In this document: in pieces, positions 1-18,378 of the stretch
Position numbering within the stretch: the first letter of the stretch is position 1
How the letters are laid out: each line of letters opens with the position of its first letter
From: Paraspadella gotoi
Lineage: Eukaryota; Animalia; Chaetognatha
Direction: 5' to 3'
Assembly: GCA_051294375.1 (NCBI GenBank)
Contig: JBJCIZ010001572.1
Location: forward strand, 1-18,378
DNA length: 18,378 nucleotides
Notes under the pieces: model-generated
Told to the model about the DNA's origin: nothing
Seen by the model: the letters and a program-made list of their open reading frames with translations, nothing else
Database searches by the model: none
Position numbers and translations under genes: made by a program

Positions 1-249
1 AACAACCAGAGAGACGATCGTCCTATGCACAGCAGTCCTCGTAGCCACCAGCGTCGAAAAAGTGCTGGATGCGTCCGCCGATCCGCATTCCGATATCAGC
101 CATTTCGTTCGGAGAAGATCAAAGGTCCAGCGGTCCCGCCTGTCGACAACAAACGGTTTGCCGTGCTCTCGTCCAAATCATCTCGTGAGACAAGTTGCGT
201 GCGAAGGTTGGTGCATTGATCTAGAAAAAAATAAAAACGAAAGAAGGAA

Positions 250-2450
250 TGAGACTAAGAATCAAGAAACAAGAGAAATGGAAATCAGAAGCCCGGAGGA
301 ACAAAATTCCTGAAAAAGGAGGAAAGAATAGCCGAGACGACAAAATTCGCATCGTTAGCCGCGAATACGTGAGACGAAGCACCCTCGTTTTTGTAGATCG
401 TTACTCTAACGCGATCCAACGGCATCGCAAAAGAAGCGGACGTATCGAAGGCACGTCAGACCGGCCGAGGAACGTCTGTCGTAATGACCCGTCGCCGTGA
501 GGAGCGGTCGTCAGGAGCGAACCGCCGCCTCGAGGAAAAGCGCCGCTCATGAGGAGCGACGTACGTGAGGACCCGCCGAGAGGAGTGCCGGCTTGGAAGC
601 ACGGCCGTCCTTGGAGGAACGACGCGTCGAGGAGCGCCGCCCGAGCAAAGTTCTTGTGGAACGAGAGGCTGAATCTGGCGATCCGGTTAACGAAAACGCA
701 GCGCCAAGACGTGTCAGCAAAGACACAATTGCTCTCCGCGGTAAGGAGTCGGCGACCGGAAAAGGGATAACGAGCAGAGAATTTCAAGGCCCGAAGTTCC
801 TTTTCTTACGTTTTCAGAGCATTGGGGAGAAACGATGACTTCGAGTTGCTTCGCCGCCATCCGCAGCATAGTCACGCGGAGTTCCGCCGCCATATAACGC
901 GCCCGTTGTCCGCGAGAAACCGCTACGGATCGTTCCGCCGCCCGTCAAGCGTTCGTGCCGGTTGAGTTAACGTCGAGTGAGCCGCCGGCTCGCCCACCGC
1001 GCCCGCGCCCGCCGCCAGCGTCCTGAAAAAACGCGGTTCTTAACACAGGAAAAAAAATGTTGCTTGAGTCAGCATGTTCGGCGCCGGTTATTAAGAAAAC
1101 GCCCGTCGTCATTTAATCGATTATGCACCGCCAGGCGTGATGTCTTGTTAAGTTCTTCTTGTAAACGAGAGGATCGCGCAAGTAGTGCCGCCATCGGCTC
1201 GTTGACCGCGCTCGGAAGAGGATGCGTCCACTGGAAGGAAAGGGAATTGAAGAAAAAAGGTCACGAAATTTGATAATTCGCAACAACAAGATGCATTAAA
1301 ACACAGCGTTTGTATTTTACAAAACGCACAACAAGCGCTAAGTTTTTATTGACAGACACACGTCCAAAACTTAAATTTAATGGAAGATCGGTAGAGTTGA
1401 TTTCGAGTCCGCAAATGAATTTCGTTTGATGTCGTTAAGTTCGTGTCGCCGGAGTAACGGATTGAGATTTTTAACTGTCCGAGTTGAAAGAATATTTCGA
1501 CGGAGACGCCGGGGGATAATTGTTTCTCAACATGATAGCTTCGAGTCGACCACATAAGGGAGCTCTCGAAAAAGGCTGAAAAAAAGTTTTAACGATATGA
1601 ATTTGGTCGTAAGAAATTTCACCAGCGAGACAAAATGTTGGAGATTTATTGAAGGGCCCGAAAATCTGCTGGATCGATGATTACGCCGGGAGGCTAGAAC
1701 TTTTATACTCGGAAAATGGAAAAAGTTTTGCACGTTCGTGGCGTCGAAACCAATCGGCGCCGCCACTTTTTCCACTGCAAGAAAACATACAGCTGAGGGT
1801 TATTTCAAAGAAATTGCCGTTTTTAGGCAGGTCGGTCCTCGAAGAGGAATGATTTGTCATGAAGATGTCAGTTTTGAAAGGGGAAATAGAGAAAAGGGAA
1901 ATGTCTCGAGATGGACTTTGGGAGAATTCTATCATCGAACTAGTGAAGGAATTTAACGAAGGTAGCGAGAGAAAAGGAATGCTTTTAAAACACAGTAACC
2001 AAGGCAATGTAAGCGGAGAAAGTAAATGAGAACAATCAATCGATGGCGGCACGCACATACGTATCATAGAAACAACGTATCCGTTCGCGTGCACGTCACG
2101 ACCACGAAGGCCGCCGTCGCCGCGAATTCAAACATTTCGCTAAATCCAAATTCCTGATCCAAATACGCATGCATCCGAGGGGCCGCGGAAATCCAAATGT
2201 GATTTTTGGTGAAAAACACATTCTACTGGAGTATGTTCCAAATTTCTTGAGTTGGATTGAGGACGAAGGGTCAACATGGAATGAGGGAGAAAGGTTTTAT
2301 GTATGTTATGTTTTCGGGTCGAGGACATCAAGCGAGATCATGCTGCGACTTGATGGCTGCCAAACGTGTGGTACTGTGCGTCATCACAGCATCTCTGCAT
2401 CGTGAAGGACCGTCAAATGAGGAAAATTCTTCCTGACTAGCGGCCGCGTA
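250..2450 (+). pseudogene. gag: BEL/Pao gag (frameshifted) with three C-terminal Cys/His zinc knuckles; 5' boundary uncertain
   Basis: Reading across indels gives C.FC.EKH...C (~2198-2238), CYVCF..GH.AR.C (~2300-2346) and C..CGTVRHHS.LH (~2357-2400). Three knuckles are typical of BEL/Pao Gag. Upstream sequence is coding-like, Glu/Arg-rich and fragmented. Confidence 0.65.
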
Positions 2451-2499
2451 TGTGAACGACGGGCGCGTGTCAGAACGCAATAGTACCTGTTGTTGTACG

Positions 2500-2975
2500 A
2501 ACGAAAATAAATCTGTTGTTTACAATAGCGCTATCGTTAGACAGCGGAGCAACGAGGTCGGCAATTTCAATAGATTAGCTCGAAATTTAAATTTAAATAC
2601 ATTATTGCTGAATTTACAAATTAACGCAACGTAACCAACAAAGTATCAAAAGCCTGGAGAGATTACAACGGACATAGAAATTTCGAATTTGGAGCGGGAA
2701 CTTACAGCTACGGAAATAAACAAAGGTTTTAGTCCGGCGACGTATTGACGACGAGACCGACCGACCAAGCAAAAAACGCATGAATTGAAGAACTAATGAT
2801 TACATGGAAGGAGTGAGATTCTGAAAGAGTTAGATGAAGGAACGCGGTTGAGATGATTCTCGACGCCAGGTTGGCACATGCATGGGTTGGTGGAGAGACG
2901 AGGATTGGGCCGGAAGGGTTTCCACGGTTGCACTGAAGAGCGAAGTTCGGGTGGACGGCTGATCGGAGCAAGTGA
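2500..2975 (+). pseudogene. pol: Aspartic protease domain of BEL/Pao pol (frameshifted)
   Basis: tta gac agc gga gca acg agg tcg gca att = LDSGATRSAI at 2537-2566. ETRIGPEGFPVAL..KFGWT..G at ~2895-2968 matches the BEL/Pao P.A..T.(L/F)GW...G motif. Confidence 0.8.
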
Positions 2976-3439
2976 GACGAAAGCGGAGATCACGTGAGTT
3001 GTTGTTCGACCGCTGGCCAGAGAACGGAGAAAACTGGAATAATTTGATTCGCGAATATGTTTCGTCATGATTTTTTTTGTTGAAAGGGTGCCGACTGTAT
3101 CCGTCCGAGGTTCAACGATCCGTCCCGTGCAAGATGGGTCCGCGATTGAAACAACTCTTGAGAGAGAAATTTATTTACAATGAGTCGAGGGCCATTATGT
3201 CGCGCCGTCGCCATGGAAACACACGGAGGGAAAAAACCGCGAGATGTTGCGCGAAGCAATGAAAGAAGAAGTTATCGAAGAGCGCCGAGAACAAGCGAGG
3301 AAGTTAGCGAATGAAGATGAGAAAAGATCCGTGTGCTTTTGAAGAGGGTGTTTCGCAGACGATGGAGGAAACCATAAAGGTTAGGTCACATGCGAGAAAA
3401 GCTAAAGTCGAGAATTCGTCCGCCGAATTTGTGGCCCGT

Positions 3440-4010
3440 GTTTTTCGGCCGTGCCGTTACTTGGTCGTTACCAGAGCGGACGAAACCTGGCAAATTTCGG
3501 ATTTGTCAGGATGCGTCGTCAAAGTAAGAGGGAAAGTGTTTAAATGATTTTTTGAATCGCTGGTCCCGATAACCTTACACCTTTAGTCGGCATGGTGTTG
3601 TTTAAAATTTCGCTCGAAAAAGGTAACAACTATTTTCCGGAGAATATTTAAAGGATTTTTTCACCAGTTGAGCTCGCATCCAAAGGACGTGGCAGCGTAT
3701 CAGGTACCAACTGGTACAAAGATAAGTCGATGAAAGGGAATCTGGAAAGTACAAACGAACCACTCGTTCACGGTTCGTGCGCCGGAAGTCCAGGTAAATA
3801 ACTACGTTGTGCTGCAATATCATGGAAAGAAGACTAAGTCAAAAAGAAAGAGTTTTCGCGCGGAGGTAATAGCCGCGTTTTTTTGGAAAGTTATCACGTC
3901 GATGATTTTTTGGAATTCGTTGGACGGGATTAAGGAAGCAAGGAAATGAGAAAGGACATGACTGAGGCGATGAGAAAGGGTGGATTCGAGCTGGAGAAAT
4001 GGCAAATGAA
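3440..4010 (+). pseudogene. pol: Reverse transcriptase domain of BEL/Pao pol (frameshifted)
   Basis: PYLVV..KPGKFRICQDA (~3455-3516), GPDNLTPLVG..KFR (~3562-3613), GDIKDFFHQ-like (~3639-3667), catalytic (Y)VDDFL (gtc gat gat 3898-3906), GGFELEKW (~3979-4002). Confidence 0.85.
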
Positions 4011-4169
4011 GCGTCGACGAAGGATCTTGTCGGACAATAGGCGGCACGATACCGAATGATGAAAGACAAAGTGAGTCGACATGGTCGCGGTACGAAGAAC
4101 TGGAAGATGAATTCAGGAAGATGGCCGAGAAACGGCACTGCGGAGGATCCGTCGATCGACGATATGATT

Positions 4170-5020
4170 CGAAGGTATTGGAGTTGGATATAATTCGAAA
4201 CGAGATGTATTCTTTGCGCGTGTAACGAAAAAGGAAGAAAACGAAGTGAAAACGAGGCGAGAGATGTTGAAGGTTGGGTCGCGTCCACGTTTTTTGATCC
4301 GCTCGGTTCGTTGCGAAGGTCGTGCTGAAGGGTATAGAATATACAAAAGTTGTTTAGTGCAGGACTTGTTGGGACGAGAAGTTGCCGGAGATCTTCACGA
4401 CGCGTTTCGAGAATGGAGAAAGAAGCTGTTCAGCAATAAAAAGAGATTCGAATCTCGAGATGGATCCGTTCGATCCTGGGTTTTGGAGTGCGTAACGACG
4501 AAGTTAATCGTTTTCTGTGATGGCGTGTCCTCGATGGTTACGGCGCCCGCAATTTATTTAAGAAAAGGAGGAACAAGAAATGGAGAGAGAGGACATACAC
4601 TTTGCTATTCGCTAAAGCCATGTGTGCCTATCAAGATGCAAGAAAAATCAATTCTAGTCGAATCAACTCGACCACCTGGATTTCGATGCCACGTTTGGAA
4701 TTGAAGCGCCGCAGCGACTGGCTGCCGCAGTTAAGAGACTTGAAAATGATCCGAGAATCGAGGTGAGGATTCGATTGAGATTTACATTGTTGACGGATTC
4801 GGTGACGGTAATCAGATGGATCGAGACTTGGACAAAAAGATTCAAAAACGTAGGGAATTTCGTTTTCAAACGATTAGACTTTTATCCAGGCGCAAGCGAT
4901 GGTTTCTACGTACCAGCAACGAGAACCCAGCGGATCTTACAAAGCAGAGGACTTGATTGCCCAGACTGACACGGATAGCAATGGTGCGACATTCACAAGG
5001 GCGCCAACTGGTTGAAAACC
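4170..5020 (+). pseudogene. pol: Pao 'peptidase A17' / RNase H region of pol (frameshifted)
   Basis: KVLG (~4172), TRREMLK (~4252), FDPLG (~4293-4307), LIVFCD..GYGA.IYLR (4504-4563), MPRLEL (4686-4703), TDSVTVIRWI (4793-4822), YVP..ENPADL..RG (~4907-4952), GANWL (~4999-5013). Confidence 0.88.
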
Positions 5021-5549
5021 AAAGGAGGGAAAAATTGCCAAATCACTCAAACGATTGCTGGAGAGCATAAAAAAGAAAAGAGAAATCAAGGTAAATCATT
5101 GCCGCAATAAACGAAGATAGCAAATTTTAAGTGCATATGAAACTCATTTTCGAAACGCGACAAGAGAGTATCCAGAGAAAGGGAAACGAAAAAGAGAACG
5201 GCAGATTGGGTGATGAGAGTGCAGAAAAGTGAGCGGAATGGGTAAAAAGGTGAGACGGGTGGCTGTATTCACAAAGGCAAAATAGTGAATGATAATCGAG
5301 TTCGAAGAAAGAAGAAAAAAGGAGAGAGAGACGAGAAGAAGAAAAATAAGATTAACGAGAGACAAGAGTTTTGAAAGGGCTGAAAAACAAATCGTGAAAT
5401 CGATCCATAAGCCAAGAATATCGAAAAAAGAGATTTTCGAGTTGATAAAAATGGGAGTGACGACCCCCGGATGCGGCATAGAGAGCTGAAGAAATAGAAA
5501 CTCGAAAATAATCTTCACTGAGGTCCGTTTATTGATGAAGAAGGGGTAT

Positions 5550-6400
5550 GATTGAGAACGGGCGGGAGATTAGGAATAGTAAGAGACTTGGACGTATGAC
5601 GCAAATACCCAATCATTTTACCAAATAAGATGACGAATCGTCGATTGCATATAAGATAGCCGACATGAGAAACTTTATCACGCGGTGCATGTGGCGACTT
5701 TCCACTACGCTACGTCAAAAGTTCACCTTGCTAGGAGGTAGATCCCGCCGTCCGAAAAAGTTTCATTTCGCCGATGGCGTCACTTGTTGTCAGCGAAATT
5801 TCAAAACGCCGAACGCGGCAAAAAAAAGAATAAAAAATAAAAAAAAAGAGGAGAGAATTGCCAGAATTCAGGGATAAATCAGCGATCCGTTCGAAGACGA
5901 CCGGACTAGATTGCTTCGGCCCAATCCAGTGTGAGACACGCAGGGTGTAGTGCCTGAACAAGAAAGAATGTAAGTTTTATTTACATGCATGACGACAAGT
6001 AAGCCTTACTTTTTGAAATTCTGAAAGACATGTCCGCACAATCAATGTTAAATGGCATATATACGTTTTAAGAATTGTATACCCAGGATTACGTACGCTC
6101 GTGTCGGACAATCGGAACAATCTGGGGGCCGGCCAACAACGAGATCGAAAAACAATTGAAAAGAAATTCAGAGGACGATAAGGTGAACGAAAGAATAGCA
6201 GAAAGAGGGATATCTCATGGATTTTTCTTGTCCACCTAACGCACCGCATTGGGGCGGAGTGTGGGAGAAGGCTCGTCAAAGAAACAAGAAGCACTTGACG
6301 GCGCGCGTTGCCTCCGGAACCGGACATTCGAGACGAGCGTTCGCAACGATATTGAGTGTAAGTCGCAGGTATTCTGAATAGACGCCCGAGTCACACTGAG
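5550..6400 (+). pseudogene. pol: Integrase (H2C2 zinc domain + DDE core) of BEL/Pao pol (frameshifted)
   Basis: GGRL (~5560), YDA.YPIILP (~5595-5623), HEKLYHAG (~5664), LRQKF..CVTCQR (~5710-5796), TGLDCFGPI (5900-5926), LFTCMTT (5977-5997), VSDN (6101-6112), PNAPHWGGVWE.LVK (~6235-6280), GILNRRP (6368-6388). Confidence 0.9.
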
Positions 6401-6499
6401 TCATCTGTCCGCTTAGCGATATTGCATTGGTCGCGCCATGATACTATTGTATCGCTATAACTTTTAGTACGTCAACGTCTCTAACTAATTTTTTAGCCG

Positions 6500-6850
6500 T
6501 ACGCAACGTCAGAAAGGAGTATTGTATGAGAGCGACATGGAGACAAGTAGAGAAACGGCAAGACAATTTTGGCAAAAATGGTAACGAGTACCTGGTCGTC
6601 CAATTGCAGGAACCGTACAAAGTGGAGGACATCGTGCGGAGAATCTACAAAAGGGCAAATGGTCTTGCTCGTTTGGAACCGAACGCGCCGCGCGACAAAT
6701 GGAAGAACGGGCATACGAGTCATCGAAGTAAAGGGACAGGGCCGGCGGAAGGAGAAGCCGTCGTGCGACTTCGGATGGAAAAACTCTTCGCGTCAATCAC
6801 ACACGCGTTGGTGGCACTCGAACATACGAAAATGGACTTCGTAATCAAAA
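6500..6850 (+). pseudogene. pol: C-terminal DUF5641-like domain of BEL/Pao pol
   Basis: WRQVE..DNFWQKW.NEYL..LQ (read across frames) followed by EPNAPRDKWK.G; partly captured by ORF 6526..6948. Confidence 0.75.
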
Positions 6851-7013
6851 GTCAGCGTTCGGAGAATCTGAGAAAAATAAAGTATACGAGCGCCTTCAAT
6901 GAAAAATTGCGAAATAAAAATGTAAATAAGAACTCGATTGTGAAATAAATTTAGATTGCGATAAATAAAGAAAAATTGAATATTCGCGATAAAGTGAAAT
7001 AGTAACGATTCCC

Positions 7014-7418
7014 ATGAAAAACTTTGAAAAATATCCTTGGATATTTGGATGGAAGACCTGAAAGAGGAAAGTTGAAATATAAGAACTTGGAATACGAACC
7101 GGAAAAAGAAATGAAAGCTTGACTTTAAATGGCGACGAACCGGAGACGAGAAGAGATTAAAAAAAATCGAGTCAAGGAATACAGAGACGATTTAGCTTTG
7201 CAGGCCAAGCGTGATAGCAAAAAAGAGGACTTAAATCAAGATTTAGAAGAATGCTTTAGAGTTCCAGAAGAGGAAATGAAACTAAAAGATGGTGAACAAG
7301 ACGATAAACGATGAATGAAAATATGACGTCTCGTCGAGGGAGAACTAAGCTCAGTACGATGAAGTATGAAAGGAGCGAAGAAAAAAGAAAAAAATAGAAG
7401 CTGAAATAAATACATTAG
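7014..7418 (+). pseudogene. Accessory ORF A, copy 1 (frameshifted; Lys/Glu-rich, acidic C-terminus)
   Basis: ATG at 7014 (MKNFEK.LDIWMEDLKEE); aligns by eye to the cleaner copy at 12718-13095; shared CAT-TAG end. Confidence 0.6.
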
Positions 7419-7485
7419 GGCCGTGATAAAAAGATTGAAACTAACCATCGTTAATCGTTTTGTTGAATATTAAATCTCAGAAAAA

Positions 7486-7905
7486 AGGAAGACTGTGAAG
7501 CCATCCGCCGAAAATGTGGGAAACCGAAGATCTGAAAGTTTGGAAAGTGGGAAGCAAATCGAAAAGGAAGAACCGGAAGAAAAACAGAGAAATGCCTAGT
7601 ATTGGTATCTGGTGTTGTTGGAGAAGGAGACAAAAAAAGTGAAGAAGTAAAAGGTAAAGCTGAAATGTGAGTGCAAAGAACGTCCCAGAAAAAGTTTCAT
7701 CGGAGACTTATATACAAGAGTTGAGTACATTGAAAGACTCATAGAACATGTTTGAATAAAGGCAAATCATCGATTTCCCGACAAGAAAGAAATATTATGA
7801 AAAAATATGGAAAAAACGAAACAGAGAAGAGTTTATCGAAGTCCATGAGAATGAAGAAATTAAAAATTCCAAGAAGCCAGAAAGAAAACAGGAGTCCAAA
7901 TATGG
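7486..7905 (+). pseudogene. Accessory ORF B, copy 1 (frameshifted; coiled-coil-like)
   Basis: Nucleotide homology to ORF 13158..13545; start codon corrupted; many small indels. Confidence 0.55.
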
Positions 7906-8034
7906 AATCTATTTTTGTTGCATTAAACAATTATCTATATAGGTTAGATAATTGCCCAAACATAAAAACAATTAATTGATCTTTCTTTATGTTTACAAAG
8001 TGTTTGTTAATACAATTTAGCATATACGATCAAT

Positions 8035-8573
8035 ATGACGACGAGCAAAATGAAAAGGAAACTCGAATCCTCTACTCGATTTAGCCAAGATGACGAATCC
8101 GTTTGAAAGCTTAAGACGCTTCGAGAGGCAGATGCGAGAATCGACGCGCATGATAGTTGGATATTCCTGGACAATTCTCGAACGACACGCTTGATGAAGC
8201 TGGAAGGGGGGGGGGTGGGGGGGGATGAACGACGAAATGGTTAGACGGGATATACTTCGATTTCATGATAAATTGTTCCTTGTATAACAATAAAGCAAAA
8301 ATTAAGTGGTGCTCTTTACAAAAATAGACAAAAAAAATGAGATCGATTACTGAAAAGATGGAGCAGAAATCAGTTGAAGATGACGAAAAATCTTTTCGAG
8401 GAGACTAAAGACCGGAATAAAGACATCGAAATGCGTTAAGTTCAAAGAAAACTATGAAAAAAGAAAATTCAAAGTTCTAAAAACGAAACGGTAAAAAACA
8501 AAGGAAGAGGAGGCATTTCAAAGAAAATGCCGGATTGACGAGAAACATTGTAATGAAACAAAAGTTTCTGTGA
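8035..8573 (+). pseudogene. Accessory ORF C, copy 1 (frameshifted)
   Basis: Homologous to 13665-14121; contains a G-run (~8206-8224) and a ~35-nt insert, both absent from copy 2. Confidence 0.55.
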
Positions 8574-8654
8574 AAAAGACAATCAAAAATATTTGATCGT
8601 GTTACTGTTATTATTTATTTAAAAGTAAATTGGCTTTCAGCCTACAGCACAATA

Positions 8655-9083
8655 ATGGAAATAGTGCGAAATGGACAGATGATCGAGGATTACATAAAGG
8701 AGAAGAATATTTCAGAGCATGGCCAGGATCAGTGGACATGAAAGTGAGGAAGGGCGAAGTCGGGAGAATGAGGTTGACAGTAAAAAGTTTTCGCGGATCA
8801 GAAGCGAGATTGGTATACGAGATGTTCCGTGGAACAAATCAACGACTTCTGGAAGGAAACGGAACTGGGAGAGATATGGCGATGAAAGACGAAGAAGGAG
8901 AACGATGGAGAAGAAGAGAGTGAGGAGAGAAATGACGATAACAGAGAGAACGACTACGAAGAAGAAGACGAATCCGCAAACGAGGAAGAAGACGATCTCG
9001 AAAACGAAGACGAAACGCACCCACCTGGTTACTATATAACATTCGACGAGACAGAGGAATTCGACTATTTGATTTCCGAATAA
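8655..9083 (+). pseudogene. Accessory ORF D, copy 1 (frameshifted 5' half; acidic protein)
   Basis: TTTCAG at 8635-8640, ATG at 8655; homologous to 14198..14614; near-identical C-terminus THPPGYYITFDETEEFDYLISE*. Confidence 0.65.
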
Positions 9084-9148
9084 ACCAAATAAGTGATTAT
9101 TGAAATTGTTAATTTGTTGCTTAAAATTCAAAGCTTTACAGAGAAATT

Positions 9149-9493
9149 ATGGGCGTACAGCAGGAACCAGAAAAGACGAGGTCAGACGACGAAGACGAAG
9201 ATGAAACAAGAGACATCGAACCACCCAGAGTTGAGAGGACGTACGAGATCGAAAGACCGACCATCTACATAGAAAGAACAGACTCAGAAACAGACGAGAC
9301 CGGCGAAAGATTCAGTTTTTACGTGGACGAAGGGGAAAGTAATCCAGAGATAATAGAAAGAATAGAAAGACTGCACCAATACAATTGGGCGAACATCTTC
9401 AGACAGTTGGAAGAAGAAGCGAGAGAAAGGAGAGAATTGAAGGAGGAAAAGGAAACTCTCGAGAGCATTAGGAATTTATTTCAGTACGAATAA
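9149..9493 (+). CDS. Accessory ORF E, copy 1: 114-aa acidic protein with C-terminal coiled-coil-like helix; function unknown
   Basis: Intact ORF; TTTACAG at 9135-9141; same length and about 90% aa identity (manual count) to 14680..15024 with no indels. Confidence 0.8.
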   Translation: MGVQQEPEKTRSDDEDEDETRDIEPPRVERTYEIERPTIYIERTDSETDETGERFSFYVDEGESNPEIIERIERLHQYNWANIFRQLEEEARERRELKEEKETLESIRNLFQYE

Positions 9494-9642
9494 ACTCATT
9501 GTGTTTAAAAAACTTTCACTGTGGCATGAAAAAACAAATCGAATTGAAAAAAAAAATAAAAAATAAAATGCAAATTTAATCCAAATTGTGTTCAATTATA
9601 TGCATTTAAATTATCAGGTAATATAATAATCTTTCCATCAAA

Positions 9643-10909
9643 ATGGCCGAATCCAGTGACCTTATAAACTATTCGACGACAATGATATTGGAATTTTAAA
9701 AAGAACTGATGTGGTGGATTCCCGACGAAGCAGGACACCGTCTACGGAGCGATGCCAGCGGCTAGAGACTTGTCCGAACTCGACGCCGAAGAAATGGAGG
9801 CGACGATCAGTTCCACGCCTGCAGTGGAATCAACCCCACAACCGGATCCGGAAGCGTCCGTCGTCGACAAAGATGTCATTGATCGATTCATCAAGCGTGG
9901 AGATTTGCCTCCACATAGGCGAGCGATGACTGATCTTTCTGTCCCGATAGTCATCGGATCGGGCGACGAAAGATTATTCATGACAGGATACCAGATTCCG
10001 CCAGGGAAGAAAAACACCATCTATCGGATTAAAAGGGCGTGGCGAAAGGTGGCACGGAACCGCGGATGGAATGACGGAGAGTTCGACGCATTGATCACTG
10101 CGTTGCGCATGGGCGTTGATCCGAAGGAGTTGGAGAGAATGGCGAGAGTCATTAAGACGAAACCCAATTGTGACGTAAACGTGGAAAACTCGTCGTTGCT
10201 GTCGGACGCGAGGAATTTAGTTCTAAAAGAGACAGTATCCAACGAAGCGGCGACAGAGGCGGCGAAAGTCATCAAAGATTCAGCTACAGCAACATCCGCA
10301 AGCGAGTGCAGCATCATCGACGCAGCCACGCAGCATGAAGCAGATTGGCCGACGACGAAAGAAGAAAAGAAAGAAAGAAAGTTGATGAAGACACAGGTAG
10401 AAAATGGGGAGCTGAAAAGAAAAATAGAAAAGTTGGAGGAAGAGTTAAAGAAGGAAAGAAAAGGAAGAATAGCTGCAGAATTAAAGTTGGATTTCCAGAG
10501 AAAAGAAGCAGAGCAACGCCGCGCCACGACGGAACGACATTGGGCTCAAGCATTTAGTAAGCTGCAAGATAAAGTTGAAAGATTATCTTGTCCGTATCCA
10601 AGGTCGCCGGAAAACAAGCACTTGTCATCCAAAGGTAACGGACTTTCCGAATTCCGTCCACCACCAGGAAAAGAGAATATGGTCAAGTCGCCGCCAAGAC
10701 CAAAGGCGCCGCGCCCGCACTTTAAGAAAACAGCAGCACTATTTCCTAGAACTGGCAAGCCTGATAAACTACGCCCCACCGCCGCCACCAGCCTCCATAA
10801 ACATACCGCCGCCACTCCCGCCAACCTCCGCCGCCACAAGAGGCCGCCACTTCGAGAATATTATCCGCCTATCGGCGAAGGAGTCGACGCGCAAGAACGT
10901 CGCGTTTGA
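9643..10909 (+). CDS. Accessory ORF F, copy 1: ~420-aa protein (acidic N-terminus, conserved globular segment, coiled coil, Pro/basic tail); function unknown
   Basis: Open frame 9752..10909 (385 aa). The upstream ATG-GCC-GAA-TCC (MAESSD) at 9643 is conserved in copy 2 (15156) and joins via small indels. Heptad-like ELKRKIEKLEEELKKE..ELKL region. Confidence 0.78.
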
Positions 10910-11499
10910 AAAGGATTCGAACTCAGAAACTCGCCAGTGTTTTTGTTTGTTTGTTTTAACGGTCTCGTGCGCGAAAGTAAGTTCCGATCAGAATCTATTA
11001 GCCGAAAGAAATTGAAATTATAAACTAAATTAGCGAACGGCCACGTCAAATTGTGACGCAGCGGTCGCATAAAATTAACCATTACAAAAAATTTAATCTT
11101 AAAACAACTAACCAAAAAATAAACTTACCTTTAAACAACATTCTTATCGCACTGTAATCTAGGAAAATTTAGACGCTAAACAAAAAGATATTAAAGAACA
11201 CAAGTAACGGAAGGTAAACAACTAACGTCGAGAAGAAAAGTAAAGTCAAAGAAGATAGTTAGCATTAATAAACCTGTAACGAGCAAACCAATTCAGAAAA
11301 ATAGCCGAAAGCTTAACTTAGTTAGATCGAATTCACGCTATAATTTCTTTAAATGTGTTCGAAAAGAAAATAATTTTATTTGAAAGAAAATTTCTCTTTA
11401 ATTTCGTGTTACGCTTCTTCCGAGCAGTTTAGCCAGAAAAAAGGAACAATTTCAATAAACAAATTTTCTTGAGTGCAAGACAAGCGGGGACGAGAAATA

Positions 11500-12420
11500 T
11501 TTAAGGCCGTCTCCGAATGCACGCACGCAAAAACATAGGCCCGCGACACGCCACTACACGCACGGCTAGCACCCAAAACATCGTGTCCAGACCAAGAGAA
11601 AACTGGAGACAAAACGAAAGACGACACGGCAGGAAAGTCATCGGAGCCAGAGCAGACACGTTCATCGAACAGAACAAACGCGCTTCATTGAAGCGCAAGC
11701 ATACATCGCGGCGTCTCAAGTCCTAGCGCGTCGTCAAGGAGACGACGCCGTGGCGCACTGTGGCGCGGAAAGAGGATCGAAACAAGACCCGCAAAGCATT
11801 CTTGCGACTCAATCGCCATAACTCTGGTCGATGATGAATGTCTGAATTACATCAAGGAGAGTCGATCAAAGACTTCCAGTCCGTCTGCAACGGCCGTCGT
11901 CATAAGGCTGTGTTGCTCAACCCCAATAATCCATGCCACATATCCTCGTCATAAGGACCCGCGGAAAGATCGTCCTAACGCAATTCCTCGTCAAAATGTT
12001 GCTCAACAAGAGGAGGCAGAAGCTCGTATTGCGAGACGATGCAGATAGCTGATCACAGCATCGTGTCGCGAGAACAGGGTGATCCGCCCAGGAACCGGAA
12101 GCAGAATCGTCCACTGCCGCCTATGCGACCCTCACTCACGGGCAAAGTTCTAACGGTGGGAGCTATTACCATGGAGACGAACTTAACACAAAGCAGAACG
12201 TTCAATCGCTGGGCAACAATGCCGACAACGTTAACGCAGGAGCTCCGTTGTCAATGGAGACGATCTAAATCTTTCATGGCGCGACATTGGAAATTCGGGA
12301 AACATGAAACATCTGCCGGGATTCGGGTAAATTACGAGAATCTTTGGGAAGAAAAGGAGCCAGTCACGTCCCGAATGAGAAAAATCAATATACCTTTCAT
12401 TCAAACATATCGCCATTAGG
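11500..12420 (+). other. Distal degraded coding-like segment of the accessory region
   Basis: GC-richer with fragmented ORFs (11517..11726, 12039..12419); homologous to the minus strand of ~17560-17270 and, weakly, ~16720-16240. Confidence 0.4.
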
Positions 12421-12495
12421 CGAAGAGATTTGTATTTGTCTCTCTTGTCACGACTAAATTCAGTAGTTTACGTTTTTTGGTCGAAGGCGTCGACC

Positions 12496-12503
12496 GGGGG
12501 GAG
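12496..12503 (+). promoter_or_regulatory. Putative polypurine tract (plus-strand primer)
   Basis: GGGGGGAG immediately followed by TGT, the usual PPT|LTR junction of LTR retrotransposons, on the gag-pol strand. Confidence 0.65.
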
Positions 12504-12617
12504 TGTAAAAATATTCGATTACGTCTACTGAATAGCCCATGTTACTGCATTGCACTAGCCTTACTACGTACTACGCACGTCGAACTCATTTTGTTTATTT
12601 GACCGTTGATCTCTCTC
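12504..12617 (+). repeat. Start of putative 3' LTR (truncated by gap)
   Basis: Begins TGTAAAAATATTCG directly after the PPT; no second LTR copy in the window to confirm. Confidence 0.5.
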
Positions 12618-12717
12618 NNNNNNNNNNNNNNNNNNNNNNNNNNNNNNNNNNNNNNNNNNNNNNNNNNNNNNNNNNNNNNNNNNNNNNNNNNNNNNNNNNN
12701 NNNNNNNNNNNNNNNNN
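12618..12717. other. Scaffold gap (100 N, size unknown)
   Basis: Run of exactly 100 N. Confidence 0.99.
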
Positions 12718-13095
12718 AATCCTTGGATATTTGGATGGAAGACCTGAAAGAGGAAATTGAAAATATAAGGACTTGGGAATACGAACCGGAAAAAGAAATG
12801 AGCTTGACTTTAAAGGCGACGAACCGGAGACGAGAAGAGATTAAAAAAATCGTCAAGGAATACAAGACGATTTACTTGCAGCCAAGCGTGATCAACAAAA
12901 AAGAGGACTTAAATCAAATTTACGAAGAATGCTTTAGAGTTCCAGAAGAGGAAATGGAAACTCAAAAGGATGGTGAACAATGACGATAACGATGATGACA
13001 AATATGACGTCATCGTCGAGGACGAACTAAGCTCAGACGATGATGAAAGGAGCGAAGAGAAAAAGAAAATAAAAGAAGCTGAAATAAAACATTAG
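12718..13095 (+). CDS. Accessory ORF A, copy 2 (5' end in gap; indels near 12960-12980)
   Basis: LDIWMEDLKEEIENIRTWEYEPEKE...CFRVPEEEME, then in a shifted frame NDDNDDDKYDVIVEDELSSDDDERSEEKKKIKEAEIKH* (TAG 13093-13095). Confidence 0.7.
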
Positions 13096-13157
13096 GCCGT
13101 GATAAAGATTGAACTAACATGTTAATCGTTTTGTTGAATTATTAAATTTCAGAAAAA

Positions 13158-13545
13158 ATGGAAAGACTTGAAGCCATCGCCGAAAAGTGGGACGAGATCG
13201 AAAGAAAGTGGGAGCAAATCGAAAAGGAAGAACCAGGAAAAAACAGAGAATGCCTAGTATTGGATCTGGTGTTGTTGGAGAAGGAGACAAAAAAGGAAGA
13301 AGAAAAGGTAAAAGCTGAAATTGAGGCAAAAGAACGTCCAGAAAAAGTTATCGGAGACTTAAACAAGAAGCTTGAGAACATGAAACGACTCAAGAACATG
13401 TTTGAAAAAGCAAAACAATCATTTCCCGAAAGAAAGAAATATTATGAAAAAATGGAAAAACGAAACAGAGAAAAGAGTTATCGAAGTCATCAAGATGAGA
13501 AATAAAATTCAAGAAAGCCAGAAAGAACAAACGAGTCAAATATGA
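13158..13545 (+). CDS. Accessory ORF B, copy 2: Glu/Lys-rich coiled-coil-like protein
   Basis: ORF 13158..13505 (115 aa) preceded by TTTCAG at 13147-13152. One extra A near 13472 probably hides the ending VIEVIKMRNKIQESQKEQTSQI* (TGA 13543-13545). Confidence 0.7.
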
Positions 13546-13664
13546 AATCTGTTTTTGTTCATTAAACAATTATCTAATAGTTAGAAATTGCCCAAAAAAA
13601 CTAATTAATTGACTTCTTTAGTTTACAAAGTGTTTGTTAATACAATTTAGCAATACAGAACAAT

Positions 13665-14121
13665 ATGACCGACGAGCAAGAAAAAGAAACTCGAACCCAC
13701 CGAGACCAAGATGACGAATCCGTTGAAAGCTAAGACGCTTCGAGAGCAGATGCGAGATCGAGCCAAGTTGGATATTCCGGACAATCTCGAACACACCTTG
13801 ATGAAGCTGGAATGGAACGAGAAATGGTTAGACGGGATATACTTCGATTACATAGCATTAGGTGTGCTCTTTACAAAGAATATGAGAAACAAAATGGAGA
13901 GTCGATTACCTGAAAAGATGGAGCAAAATCATTGAAGATGACGAAAAAATCTTTTCGAAGGAGACTAAAGACCGGAATAAAGACATCGAAATGCCTTAAG
14001 TTCAAAGAAAAACTATGAAAAAAGAAAATTCAAATTCAAAACGAAACGGTAAAAAAGGAAGAGGACATTTCAAAGAAATGCGGATGACGAGAAACATTGT
14101 AATGAAAACAAAAGTCATCTG
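13665..14121 (+). CDS. Accessory ORF C, copy 2 (several apparent indels)
   Basis: ATG at 13665 after ATTTAG/ATACAG; core frame 13711..13935 (KLEWNEKWLDGIYFDYIALGVLF); coding-like sequence continues to a TGA near 14120. Confidence 0.6.
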
Positions 14122-14197
14122 AAAAAGACAATCAAAAATATTGATGTGTTACTGTTATTATTTATTTAAAAGTAAATTGTTTCAGCCACAGCAAATA

Positions 14198-14614
14198 ATG
14201 GAAAAGTGCGAAATGGACAAGATGATCGAGATTACAAAAAGGAGAAGAATATTCAGAGCATGGCCAGGATCAGTGGACATGAAAGAGAGGAGGGCGAAGT
14301 CAGGAGATGAGTTGACAGTAGAAAGTTTCGCGGACCGAACAAAATTGGTATACGAGATGTTCGTTCGGAAACAAATCAACGACTTCTTGGAAGGAAACGG
14401 ACGGAGGAATGGCGATGAAGACGAAGAAGGAGACAATGGAGAAGAAGAGAGTGAGGAGAGAAATGACGAAAACGGAGGGAACGACGACGAAGAAGAGGAC
14501 GAGTCCGCAAACGAGGAAGAAGACGATCTCGAAAACGAAGACGAAACGCACCCACCTGGTTACCATATAACATTCGACGAGACAGAGGAATTCGACTATC
14601 TAATATCCGAATAA
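14198..14614 (+). CDS. Accessory ORF D, copy 2: 138-aa protein, basic N-terminal domain + long Asp/Glu tract
   Basis: Intact frame (within ORF 14141..14614); TTTCAG at 14180-14185, ATG at 14198; conserved with copy 1. Confidence 0.78.
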   Translation: MEKCEMDKMIEITKRRRIFRAWPGSVDMKERRAKSGDELTVESFADRTKLVYEMFVRKQINDFLEGNGRRNGDEDEEGDNGEEESEERNDENGGNDDEEEDESANEEEDDLENEDETHPPGYHITFDETEEFDYLISE

Positions 14615-14679
14615 ATCAAATTAGTGACTATTGAAATGTTAATATGTTGTTTAAAATTCAAAGTTTTACAGAAAAAATT

Positions 14680-15024
14680 ATGGGCGTACAACAGGAACCA
14701 GAAAAGATGAAGTCAGACGATGAAGACGAAGACGAACCAAGAGACGTCGAACCAATCAGAGTTGAGAGGACGTACGAAATCGAAAGACCGACCATCTACA
14801 TAGAAAGAACAGACTCAGAGACAGACGAAACCGGCGAAAGATTCAGCTTTTACGTTGATGAAAGGGAGAATAACCCAGAGATAACAGAGAGAATAGAAAG
14901 ACTGCACCAATACAATTGGACGAACATCTTCAGACAGTTGGAAGAAGAAGCAAGAGAGAGGAGAGAATTGAAGGAAGAAAAAGAAATACTCGAGAGTATT
15001 AGAAACTTATTTCATTACGAATAA
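14680..15024 (+). CDS. Accessory ORF E, copy 2 (114 aa)
   Basis: Intact; TTTTACAG at 14664-14671; ATG at 14680 matches the copy 1 start. Confidence 0.8.
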   Translation: MGVQQEPEKMKSDDEDEDEPRDVEPIRVERTYEIERPTIYIERTDSETDETGERFSFYVDERENNPEITERIERLHQYNWTNIFRQLEEEARERRELKEEKEILESIRNLFHYE

Positions 15025-15155
15025 ATTCATCGAAAACATTCATTGTAACATGAAAAAACAAATCAAATTTAAAAAATAAAATACAAATTTATTTCAAATT
15101 GTGTTCATATATATGCATTTAAATCATCAGGTATCATAATAGTCCTTCTATCAAA

Positions 15156-16204
15156 ATGGCCGAATCCAGTGACACGATAATGACATTGGAATTTTGAAGA
15201 AAGAACTGATGTGTGGATTCCCGACGAACAAGAGCAGGACACCGTCTACGGAGCGATGCCAGCGCGAGAGACTTGTCCGAACTCGACGCCGAAGAAATGG
15301 AGGTGACGGCCAGTTCCACGCCCGCAGTGGAATCAACTCCACAACCGGATCCGGAAGCGTCCGTCGTCGAGGAAGATGTCGTTGATCGTTTCATCAAGCG
15401 TGGAGAATTGCCTCCACATCGGCGAGCGATGACAGATCTTTCTGTCCCGATAGTCATCGGATCAGGCGACGAAAGACTATTCATGATAGGATACCAGATT
15501 CCGCCAGGGAAGAAAAACACCATTTATCGGATTAAAAGGGCGTGGCGAAAGGTGGCACGGAATCGCGGATGGAATGACGGAGAGTTCGACGCACTGATCA
15601 CTGCATTGCGCAAGGGCGTCGATCCGAAGGAGTTGGAGAGAATGGCAAGAGTCATAAAGACGAAACCCAATTGTGACGCAAACGTGGAGAATCCATCATT
15701 GCAGCTAGACGCAGCGTCCGACGGAGCAGCGACAAAGGCGGCGAACGAAGATTCAGCTATAGCAGCATCCACAAGCGAGTGCAGCATTATCGACGCAGCC
15801 ACGCAGCATGAAGCAGATTGGCCGACGACGAAAGAAGAAAAGAAAGAAAGAAAGTTAATGAAGATGCAGGTAGAAAATGGGGAGCTGAAAAGAAAAATTG
15901 AGAAGCTGGAGGAAGAGTTAAAGAAAGAAAGAAAAGGAAGAATAGCTGCAGAACTGAAGCTGGACCTCCAGAGGAAAGAAGCCGAGCAACGCCGCGCCAC
16001 GACGGAACGACATTGGGCTCAAGCATTCAGCAAGCTGCAAGATAAAGTTGAAAAGTTATCTTGTCCGTACGCGAGGTCGCCGCCACCGGAAAGCGGACAG
16101 TCGTCATCCAGAGGTAACAGACTCTCCGAATTTCGTCCACCACCAGGAAAAGAAAACTTGATCAAGTCGCCGCCAAGACCAAAGGCGCCGCCTTTTAAGA
16201 AAAC
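15156..16204 (+). CDS. Accessory ORF F, copy 2 (3' end displaced by the inversion)
   Basis: Open frame 15213..16226 is homologous to ORF F copy 1 up to ..KAPPFKK; conserved MAESSD start at 15156. Confidence 0.75.
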
Positions 16205-18378
16205 TCACGCAATAAGTACATCTTAAGTAAATCATGTAGTCTTCGCACCCTAAGTACCTGGCCTAAAATTATTTGACATGAGGGTAGTTGACTTTTTTGC
16301 TTCAGCGTTACTGCCCACTTTCCAAGTTCATGTTCACCGAAAGATCCCAAAAGTTCATTTCGCCCGTGATCCAACTCGGAAAAGGTCGCGAACCCAGGCT
16401 TTCGTCGTCTACCAGGAAACGAGACTCGCTCCGCGGTTAAGTATGTTGTCCGTTCCGCTTTCGTCGTCTCCATGGCCAACGGTGAGCCTTCGCCGGAATC
16501 CCGTTAACGGTTGGTTCCTGTCTGCTTTCAGTCGTCTTCATGGAAGGAGCTCCCCCGCGCTTAACGTTGCAATAATCTTGCGCTGGCGAGTAGACACGTT
16601 GACACTGCTGCCGCGCGTCGTCCTGCTTCCGTATCCGGCAATCAGCCTCTCTGGATGGCGATCTGGAGCCGCCTTCTGGAGCGCAAATCGCGTCTCCACA
16701 TTGACAAGCACATTGCTCTCCGCATTCGGTGGTGTAAGTTGACAAATATGAGACAAGATGTATTTCGTTTTGAGACGGAATAATCACTGTTGTGAAGCCA
16801 GGAATGAGTCGCCTTGATCGTATGGATTGCGTGGAGACCTGATGAGCATTGTATATATTTGGTGTCGACGCGAATCGTTGGTGCAATACCCGTTCTATTG
16901 TATTGAAAACCTGTAACGTAACAAAAAATAACAGTTTATTGAAACAAAAACGTATTCTGTTAAATGGAAATGAATTGAATCTTTGACACGCCATGCTGCA
17001 GACATTGCCTCTCGGCTGACTTCATCGATGATGAATTTGCGGCGCAATCTTTGAGTAGTTCTTTGAATGGATTGATAAACTCAGAACTTGTTTCGGGTCC
17101 GGCTTCTAAGGACTCGTTGAAGCGTCGAAACGATCTCTTGGACGCAGGCTCTTTGACGAGGCGTTGCGACAATCGGTAAACTTTTTTTGAGAAGATCGGC
17201 GGTTCGCAGTGGTTATCCGGTTGCTCGCTTCATGTGCTCGTGCGGCGTCTACGAACTAGTCTTTGACCTTTAATCTTTGGTTCTTTATCTTTTCCACGCC
17301 ACGGCGAGCCCGCGGCGTCGTTCTCCATTTGACCGAGAGCGCGCTAAGGACTCGAACGCAAGCGAATGGAATGCTTCCGCTTACGAGTGAGCGCGTGTGT
17401 TCTGGTTCTGCAGTGACTTTTCCTGCCTGCTATGGCTCTTGGTCTCCGGTTTGTCATCCGTCCTTCAGTCTTCGTCCTGGAAGGAATGTTTTGTGGGTGT
17501 ACGTCGTGTGTGCGGGAGCATACGTGGCGTGGCGTTGCTATTCGAAAGACCGGGCTTAAATATATTCTCTCCCCCTTGTCCTTGCATCAGAAAAATTTCG
17601 TTTATTGAAATTGGTTCTTTTTTCTGCACTACAACTGCATCGGGCACGAAGGGTAACACGAAACTTAAAAGAAAGATTCTTTCAAGCAAAATTATTTTTT
17701 CTTTTTCCGACGTGTCTAATTAAAGAAAATTAAGTATGTAATCCCGATCTAAATAGGTATTAAGGGCCCTTTACCTTATTTGTCGCTAAGTTGGTGTACC
17801 TCGTTAACAGGTTACTATAATCTAACTATCTTGCTGTTACTTTCATTTTCTTCTCGATGGGGCCGTTAGTCTGTTTACCAACTCCGTACTTTGTCTTTTA
17901 AATTCCTTTGCTTATTAACACTTCTAACATTTTCCTAATTACCCTCAAGCTGTAGGGGCGGTGAGGAATTTTTGTTTATAAGGATAAGTTAAGATTGTTC
18001 TTTCATCTAAATACAAATTCTCTCGAATAAAGATTTAACGTACTGTTAATGGTAATATAATCGACCTCAGTCACATTTGACGTGGCTTGCCTCCTAAATT
18101 TATTCTAATTTCAATTTCTTTTCTATAGGTCCTGATCGGATAAATTATTGTCGCGCACGACCGTAATAACCAAGCAAACAAACAAACACTGGCGAGTTCA
18201 TGAATCCTTTTAGAACGCGACGCGTTGCGCGTCGACATCTTCGCCCATGGCGATAATATTCTCAGGACGTGGGCGGCTCTTGTGGCGCGCGGAGGTGGCG
18301 AGTGCGCGATGATGGAGGGTGTGGCGGCGGTGGCGCGGCGTCCGTTATCGAGTTGCAGCACTAGGAATAACGGCTGTT
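16205..18378 (-). repeat. Inverted continuation of copy 2 (equivalent to ~10729-12450)
   Basis: Reverse complement of the window end (aacagccgttattcctag...gagaatattatcgcc...gtcgacgcgcaa...aaaaggattc...aactcgccagtgtttg) matches 10729-10950. Homology continues to ~17270 (=~11790) and weakly over ~16720-16240 (=~12020-12425). Confidence 0.88.
16960..17260 (-). CDS. Possible additional accessory ORF in the inverted copy (start uncertain)
   Basis: Open frame 16960..17172 (QRLVKEPASKRSFRRFNESLEAGPETSSEFINPFKELLKDC), followed on the minus strand by AATAAA (16935-16940) and TTACAG (16911-16916), the same spacer design as A-F. Confidence 0.4.

Follow-up and report, generated by a model that had tools for sequence, protein, structure and literature searches.

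A BEL/Pao retrotransposon family of Paraspadella gotoi with five or six small orphan genes, probably released as separate mRNAs in the manner of worm operons

Introduction

Does a row of small genes lying between a BEL/Pao pol gene and a long terminal repeat (LTR) belong to the retroelement, and by what route would such genes be expressed? The question is raised by contig JBJCIZ010001572.1 (assembly GCA_051294375.1) of the chaetognath Paraspadella gotoi, of which a stretch of 18,378 nucleotides (nt) with a single gap of 100 N at 12618-12717, hereafter called the window, was analysed. The analysis points to a BEL/Pao family with five or six small orphan genes, named A to F, which on balance are probably made as separate messenger RNAs (mRNAs) cut from the element transcript in the manner of worm operons. 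That the A-F cassette belongs to the BEL/Pao element is very likely. A preliminary description of the window had proposed a complex retroelement of more than 12.5 kb with six or more accessory genes. At the level of the family, the sequences support an element that exceeds 12.6 kb and holds a cassette of several genes, placed after integrase and before the purine tract, but the copy in the window is composite, and the genes number five or six.

The preliminary description omitted that the cassette is present twice in the window, and that the first copy is a mosaic. Two large internal repeats were identified: 7033-10712 (copy 1) against 12719-16191 (copy 2) with 86% identity, and 10772-11509 against 18337-17551 on the opposite strand. 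Most of copy 1 is error-rich long-read fill. The window was compared with short-read contigs of four runs (X1, X3, X4 and X8), contig depth not being used as copy number. Publications marked "in part" are cited for the portion available.

Results

The BEL/Pao core

Positions 1-12617 of the window are read as a BEL/Pao LTR retrotransposon with the order protease, reverse transcriptase (RT), RNase H and integrase, followed by genes A-F. The features upstream of the cassette are as follows; indels stands for insertions and deletions.

209..218, + strand: candidate primer-binding site of the tRNA-Gly type (motif match); the 5' LTR would end just before it, running off the window start
270..1250, + strand: GC-rich leader 5' of gag, with its own TTTCAG (812) and ATG (835), in error-rich sequence
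1300..2450, + strand: gag region, frameshifted in this read, with Cys-His motifs at 2297-2311 and 2355-2372 (translations read by eye); start approximate
2450..6948, + strand: BEL/Pao pol with many indels, stop at 6946-6948 with AATAAA over the stop (tblastn and a profile of five BEL/Pao proteins)

The presence of a BEL/Pao pol upstream of the cassette, as first described, was confirmed by tblastn, profile and motif order. A search with the integrase stretch matched five proteins among 53 candidates, with weak E values of 0.019-8.4, and all five carry PF05380 (Pao RNase H) or PF18701 (DUF5641). By tblastn these five proteins were collinear on the + strand, with RT at 3462-4017, RNase H at 4647-4843 and integrase at 5477-6691, and the reversed window as control gave two matches, the best at E 0.24. 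The profile of the five proteins reached E 1.4e-12 and 1e-7 in two + frames of the window, the reversed control being empty. Direct Pfam scans of the broken pol frames gave no match, and the first pol query likewise found nothing. The motifs LDSG (2537), ..VDD (3898-3906), FCDG (4513), PNAPHWGG (6235) and LVALE (6808-6822) were located by eye, the expected motifs being partly those of PMC554778 (in part); the domains are protease at 2537, RT at 3898, RNase H at 4513-4935 and integrase at 5477-6822. No purine tract or LTR lies directly after pol, in agreement with the preliminary description, but the end of pol, formerly set at about 6850, is to be moved: the conserved C-terminal block of integrase ends at 6822, and the frame is open to the stop at 6946-6948.

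The two Cys motifs of gag (2297-2372) sit in different frames, and the gag region is without a Pfam match. The candidate primer-binding site is the single match in the window, but 10 of 200 shuffles also give one, and its motif was chosen after the sequence had been seen. No CA directly precedes it, and 1-208 is without a match in 10900-12617. If this site is right, the internal region measures 12.3 kb. Coding-like stretches are present in the leader, where further small genes may lie.

Accessory genes A-F

The cassette contains the following genes.

7049..7419, + strand: gene A, acidic, about 120 amino acids (aa), its frame broken in this copy; counterpart at 12735-13095 in copy 2 with one interruption (open frames)
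7486..7864, + strand: gene B, highly charged; copy 2 at 13158-13505, 115 aa (open frames)
8035..8377, + strand: gene C, with a counterpart at 13665-13935 in copy 2; its end is uncertain and may lie as far on as about 8590, or C may join D (open frames)
8655..9083, + strand: gene D, with an acidic tail behind a small folded head; copy 2 at 14198-14614, 138 aa (tail under selection; model with a predicted local distance difference test score, pLDDT, of 59)
9149..9493, + strand: gene E, acidic, 114 aa, open in both copies; copy 2 at 14680-15024 (selection; contigs)
9644..10909, + strand: gene F, about 420 aa, with a helical domain, a coiled coil and a Pro-rich basic tail (selection over 306 codons)

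Six co-oriented open reading frames had been listed between 6850 and 12506. Only E and most of F are open there, whereas A-D are broken by indels and were read from copy 2 (12719-16204), in which B, D and E are open and A and C are interrupted. Because A and C are interrupted in copy 2 too, and because the end of C is uncertain, the gene count is given as five or six. The probable start of F is at 9644, its frame being interrupted near 9695-9710 and open over 9710-10909; in copy 2, F is open from 15210. The stop of E and the E/F spacer are spanned by contigs without differences (X4 record 26). An insertion of about 20 nt in C, a G-run at 8204-8228 that is absent from copy 2, looks like a read artefact.

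Purifying selection acts on genes E and F and on the tail of D. Between the copies, the ratio of nonsynonymous to synonymous substitution rates (dN/dS) was 0.12 over the 114 codons of E (p 2e-8) and 0.21 over 306 codons of F (p 2e-11), two parts of F giving 0.17 and 0.09; over 57 codons of the D tail it was 0.20 (p 0.016). These values were obtained at dS 0.19-0.38. An Arg-rich shifted frame over the acidic tail of D was rejected as a gene; it has no start and is a by-product of GAA/GAC runs.

No relative of the cassette proteins was found in the libraries searched. For A-F and the read-through frames there was no Pfam match above the cut-off and none among the eight PHROGs queries, A-C being scanned against Pfam and PHROGs. 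F had no relative among 7,997 candidates, and a frame with the head of D, the whole of E and the first half of F gave no match at E 0.001 in 1.84 billion proteins. By exact look-up none of five cassette proteins was present; searches of viral contigs with E and of metagenome contigs with F found no relative, and the best match among PDB sequences was at E 0.72. A structure search, which the preliminary description had proposed for A-F, was made by Foldseek with single-sequence models of F and D and gave nothing at E 0.001; the models were poor (pLDDT 42 and 59), so this blank carries no weight. A, B, D, E and F are all charged and have no hydrophobic segment (best 19-residue mean 0.63), and are for this reason not taken as envelope proteins.

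Operon-like layout of the cassette

Along the cassette a unit is repeated that consists of a stop with AATAAA, a short T-rich spacer, an acceptor word and an ATG. The genes are co-oriented, and the stop-to-start spacers measure 62-262 nt (eight spacers). AATAAA lies on or beside five of the six stops, those of pol, A, B, D and E; among the 149 stop triplets of copy 2 the figure is 10 (p 8e-6). The acceptor word [AT][AT][AT]CAG is found within 20 nt before four of the five gene starts. The starts of C, D and E had been chosen with acceptors in view, and the acceptor test was therefore repeated without choosing: all three TT[AT]CAG words in copy 2 lie at most 20 nt before an ATG that opens at least 100 codons (7.7% of positions; p 5e-4). 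Shuffled spacers yield a word of this type in 0.5-1.0%. Copy 1 retains the acceptors of D and E as well as four of the AATAAA words. Read together, these signals make it rather likely that the genes are made as separate mRNAs through the acceptors; that the acceptors would serve trans- rather than cis-splicing is given an even chance. Taken by themselves, the TTTCAG acceptors and the compactness of the genes point to a nematode as the likely host, another animal with spliced leaders being a possible alternative.

At a distance of 3-10 nt after the stops of A and D there are donor-like words of the GTGA type (13099, 14624 and 9093), from which it is 48-54 nt to the next acceptor. Splicing from them would eliminate the site of poly(A) cleavage, and might work as a switch.

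The 3' end of the element

Downstream of gene F the following features were identified.

10910..11490, + strand: AT-rich non-coding spacer with AATAAA at 11454, common to the flipped block described below (copy comparison)
11719..11750, + strand: conserved motif of 32 nt containing an 8-bp hairpin (no differences among contigs of X1, X4 and X8, three of four runs)
11790..12480, + strand: variable distal segment (no match in the other copy)
12496..12503, + strand: polypurine tract (motif and contigs)
12504..12617, + strand: beginning of the 3' LTR, which runs into the assembly gap at 12618-12717 (contigs of X1, X3 and X8)

The purine tract and LTR start had been placed at 12496-12506, where GGGGGGAG is directly followed by TGT, and this placement was upheld by a sole exact match and by three contig flanks. 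The pattern tried, GGGGGGAGTGT, has its sole exact match at 12496-12506; with one mismatch allowed there are four matches, a number reached by two of 200 shuffles. Contigs of X1, X3 and X8 match 12520-12602, agree back to the TGT and diverge upstream of it, representing three insertion flanks. Since three runs show the same LTR start behind three different flanks, the TGT at 12504 is the true LTR boundary. The segment 11490-11790 was rejected as an LTR; it does not match 1-208, and the boundary at 12504 is direct.

The distal block had been described as coding-like, but coding was not borne out. Its part at about 11500-11785 is common to the flipped block, the shared sequence extending to about 11790 and including the conserved hairpin, and the remainder is not shared. 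Positions 11828-12443 are uncovered by the listed contigs in all four runs, which proves nothing alone. A 2,910-nt contig of X1 contains 11728-11750 and, 472 letters on, 12485-12506; the segment from hairpin to purine tract is 472 nt in this contig, as compared with 734 nt in copy 1 and more than 1,070 nt in the second family member. In that member the distal segment (16437-17230, minus strand) is wholly unlike the first, with AATAAA at 16940, an acceptor word at 16916 and an open frame of 194 codons bearing several cysteines, and perhaps holds further, variable genes.

The hairpin at 11719-11750 folds with z -2.8 (two of 200 shuffles), while the 91 nt around it do not fold more strongly than shuffled sequence. 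It is likely a cis-acting signal and not a gene. The hairpin pattern gave two matches in metagenomes, both on high-GC contigs without other similarity or pol and taken as chance, and none in viral contigs. No tRNA or Rfam family was found in the scans.

Two family members in the window

The part of the window beyond the gap contains the following.

12719..16204, + strand: second family member in a better-quality copy, with genes A-E and F up to its tail (86% identity to 7033-10712)
16205..18378, - strand: flipped continuation of the second member, with the F tail, spacer, hairpin region and a different distal segment without purine tract (similarity to about 11785)

Positions 1-12617 are largely error-rich. 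Over 7033-9100 (2,067 nt) copy 1 differs from copy 2 by 156 indel events, of which 116 are extra letters in copy 1, as compared with only 15 indel events over 9100-10712, and throughout pol single letters of the window are missing from the short-read contigs. To judge from these patterns, the frameshifts in copy 1 are most likely long-read errors rather than decay.

Two family members are combined in copy 1, which switches from one to the other at about 8900: among gap-distant columns, 24 of 869 differ from copy 2 on the left and 143 of 1,656 on the right (p 2e-9). In 40 trials with added indel noise the difference rate stayed at 0.079-0.115, indicating that noise does not hide differences. 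Because the rate switches at this point, gag, pol and A-D are assigned to a member close to copy 2, and D-E-F-LTR to the other member. The change from 2.8% to 8.6% difference, at 8870-8910, falls exactly at the end of the error-rich sequence. The switch is either an assembly join of two family members or a recombinant.

Copy 2 stops at copy-1 position 10731 and the flipped block begins at 10729, an overlap of 3 nt in copy-1 coordinates. The block 16205-18378 is probably a mis-oriented extension of copy 2 in the assembly; the idea that 17551-18337 is a third, more diverged copy was rejected, as it continues copy 2. Contigs of about 80% identity keep the orders E-F (X4, 2,415 nt; window 9186-9462) and A-B (X1, 2,063 nt; window 7033-7468), and from these contigs more distant sister families of the element appear to exist in the same species.

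Linkage of the cassette to pol and LTR

In the window pol runs into A-D within one continuous error-rich stretch of unchanged quality. A 482-nt contig of X3 joins the pol end (6620-6823) to 8399-8443. Within the cassette the gene order is followed by contigs from A to B (X1 record 5), from D into E (8513-9249; X1 record 6), from E into F (9391-9666; X4 record 26) and across the F stop (10629-11024; X3 record 20), some of the linking contigs being of about 80% identity. The order F, spacer, hairpin is read independently a second time in the flipped block. Between the regions of 6823 and 8399 the X3 contig has 192 letters as against 1,575 in the window, and represents a variant without A, B and most of C.

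Discussion

Alternative explanations

Several points weigh against the element and its expression as read above. The pol-to-A junction rests on one error-rich stretch and one contig of the shorter variant: the junction at 6850-7050, singled out for checking in the preliminary description, is continuous in the window, but no contig among the matches listed bridges 6823-7033. The X1 contig from hairpin to tract is anchored by just 23 and 22 nt, and the contigs over the border of tract and LTR have fewer than 31 letters on one side (the rule of the tool being 31). With copy 1 a mosaic, no single molecule is seen running from gag to LTR, and this exact copy may not exist. These points, together with the error-rich fill, the flipped block and the gap, all in the same window, would fit a cassette that is an independent repeat or a host gene cluster and owes its place between pol and LTR to the assembly. 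Such an origin is nevertheless improbable. The stretch from pol to A-D is continuous and shows no change of quality, the pol stop has the same AATAAA and a 100-nt spacer as the other genes have, the X3 contig ties the pol end to 8399-8443 and the X1 contig ties the hairpin to the purine tract, and the long introns that host genes would likely show are absent.

With regard to expression, the Ur motif TAYYTT, the signal of nematode SL2 operons, is present in none of the eight spacers. The distance from AATAAA to acceptor is 64 nt (A/B) and 56 nt (D/E), leaving about 35-45 nt after cleavage, while 50-200 nt is usual in nematode operons (PMC7668243, in part). F has no acceptor word within 20 nt before its ATG, C has no AATAAA at its stop, and selection on A-D, tested on the pooled genes, did not reach significance (p 0.36 and 0.20), a result to be expected should these stretches be noisy and nearly identical. 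The missing Ur motif and the two short spacers would suit the same element with its genes expressed by cis-splicing, each acceptor being joined to a donor close to the 5' LTR, and with the AATAAA words as ordinary alternative 3' ends; acceptor words serve cis- and trans-splicing alike, and precedents are found in complex retroviruses and in CERV, made from a spliced Cer1 mRNA (PMC10309623, in part). This route is less likely: a poly(A) signal at nearly every stop including that of pol, with the next acceptor within about 60-150 nt, is needless for it and is the pattern of operons (PMC7668243, in part). A smaller number of genes would result if the spacers were short introns, A-F exons of two or three proteins, and the stops sequence errors; GT...AG segments of 54, 48-49 and 38-40 nt fit the spacers A/B, D/E and C/D, and the end of C is uncertain. 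The stops of D and E, however, lie in the accurate part of both copies and 5' of the GT, that of E being spanned by contigs, and the letter count from acceptor to the ATG of E differs by one between the copies. The idea is confined to C/D, and as an account of the cassette it is the least probable of the three.

Proposed mechanism

For the preferred reading, an element with separate mRNAs for its accessory genes, the following course is proposed. The element would be transcribed from the 5' LTR, and most transcripts would be cut and polyadenylated after a gene, a spliced leader being joined at the next acceptor. To serve as genomic RNA, a fraction of the transcripts would have to escape processing at every one of these sites, and this requirement would create the need for a regulator encoded by the element, comparable to CERV of Cer1. 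The A-F proteins, predicted to be soluble and highly charged, might be such regulators rather than envelope, protecting or exporting the full-length RNA or blunting germline RNA silencing, by analogy with CERV for Cer1 and with what has been suggested for SDG-1 of Cer9. Such proteins, or Gag, would recognise the hairpin at 11719-11750 as a cis signal. This regulatory role is put forward tentatively. In its widest form the proposal is a eukaryotic operon built inside a retroelement, in which pol and five or six genes (more, perhaps, with the leader) are released by polyadenylation and spliced-leader trans-splicing, and in which the element proteins and the hairpin toggle between release and intact genomic RNA; we regard this as a real possibility somewhat short of an even chance.

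Accessory genes are regarded as a mark of complex vertebrate retroviruses, and for BEL/Pao elements the profile gives one to three genes. Five or six orphan genes under selection in an invertebrate element, with host-type 3'-end and acceptor signals, would provide a small collection of candidate proteins for counter-silencing or RNA export, and raise the question of how genomic RNA survives past six internal cut sites. A trans-spliced operon in the element, if true, would be a third route, beside cis-splicing and frameshifting, for multi-gene expression by a reverse-transcribing element. The findings also suggest such cassettes as a source of apparently species-specific genes in genome annotations.

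Comparison with known systems

The architecture had been presented as not described. This is too strong, as Cer8 and Cer9 hold several extra genes, but the tight operon-like layout was not found described in the sources as available. No multi-gene BEL/Pao cassette appears in the available portions of PMC9094657, PMC2774666 and PMC6086898, and no description of an operon inside an LTR element was found in the literature searched, mostly without subscription papers; it is possibly in print in part, or in Repbase. As far as found, large BEL/Pao elements with extra genes are already known, but none has been described with so many small orphan genes that are under selection and arrayed like an operon.

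Nematode SL2-type operons resemble the cassette in their co-oriented genes, short spacers and poly(A) signal followed by an acceptor (PMC7668243, in part); here the array sits in a retroelement that needs its whole genomic RNA, and the Ur motif is absent. In Cer1, a Ty3/gypsy element, the regulator CERV is made from a sub-genomic mRNA and carries out the export of the unspliced genomic RNA (PMC10309623, in part). By description, it differs in belonging to another family and in being one large, cis-spliced protein.

In the profile of Belpaoviridae by the international virus taxonomy committee, ICTV (Tas, Atlas and others), elements have one to three genes, 4.2-10 kb and a tRNA-Arg or tRNA-Gly primer (PMC8742986). 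The present element shares the pol order and the purine tract before the 3' LTR, has a candidate for a tRNA-Gly primer site, and lies outside the profile with more than 12.6 kb, at least seven genes and no env-like gene seen. The range is descriptive and not a bar, because Cer8 and Cer9 exceed it too; one survey bounded elements at 15 kb (PMC3118150, in part). The env-bearing BEL/Pao elements of nematodes (Tas, Cer7, Cer13 and Atlas) have a membrane-anchored envelope after integrase, in contrast to A, B, D, E and F, which are without hydrophobic segments. Cer19 has ORF2 in addition to gag-pol, an extra expressed gene, with env in the C. inopinata homologue (PMC7084138, in part); its one extra gene bears zinc-knuckle signatures, as against five or six small charged proteins here.

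The closest likeness is to Cer8 and Cer9 of Caenorhabditis elegans. Cer8 is of the Pao family (10.1101/303230, PMC11662393, both in part), and both Cer8-1 (19.4 kb) and a mixed Cer8/Cer9 element (19.8 kb) are bounded by LTRs on either side and hold several genes that have been annotated (PMC4367959 Table 1, in part). SDG-1 (sdg-1/F07B7.2) in Cer9 is a species-restricted, expressed protein with a low-confidence fold (PMC11793870, PMC13277809, both in part). The RT motif of Cer7-Cer12 is YVDN (PMC554778, PMC9094657, both in part), whereas that at 3898-3906 is ..VDD, a difference of one base in an error-rich read. No sequence link was found, D, E and F having matched nothing in the libraries searched; the genes here are smaller, and operon-like signals are unreported for Cer8 and Cer9 in the available portions of these sources. 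Like the present element, Cer8 and Cer9 are Pao-family elements far longer than 10 kb with several extra genes between their LTRs (ZK262.8, C03A7.2 and ZK228.1 among the names), which suggests that these extra genes are part of a wider pattern.

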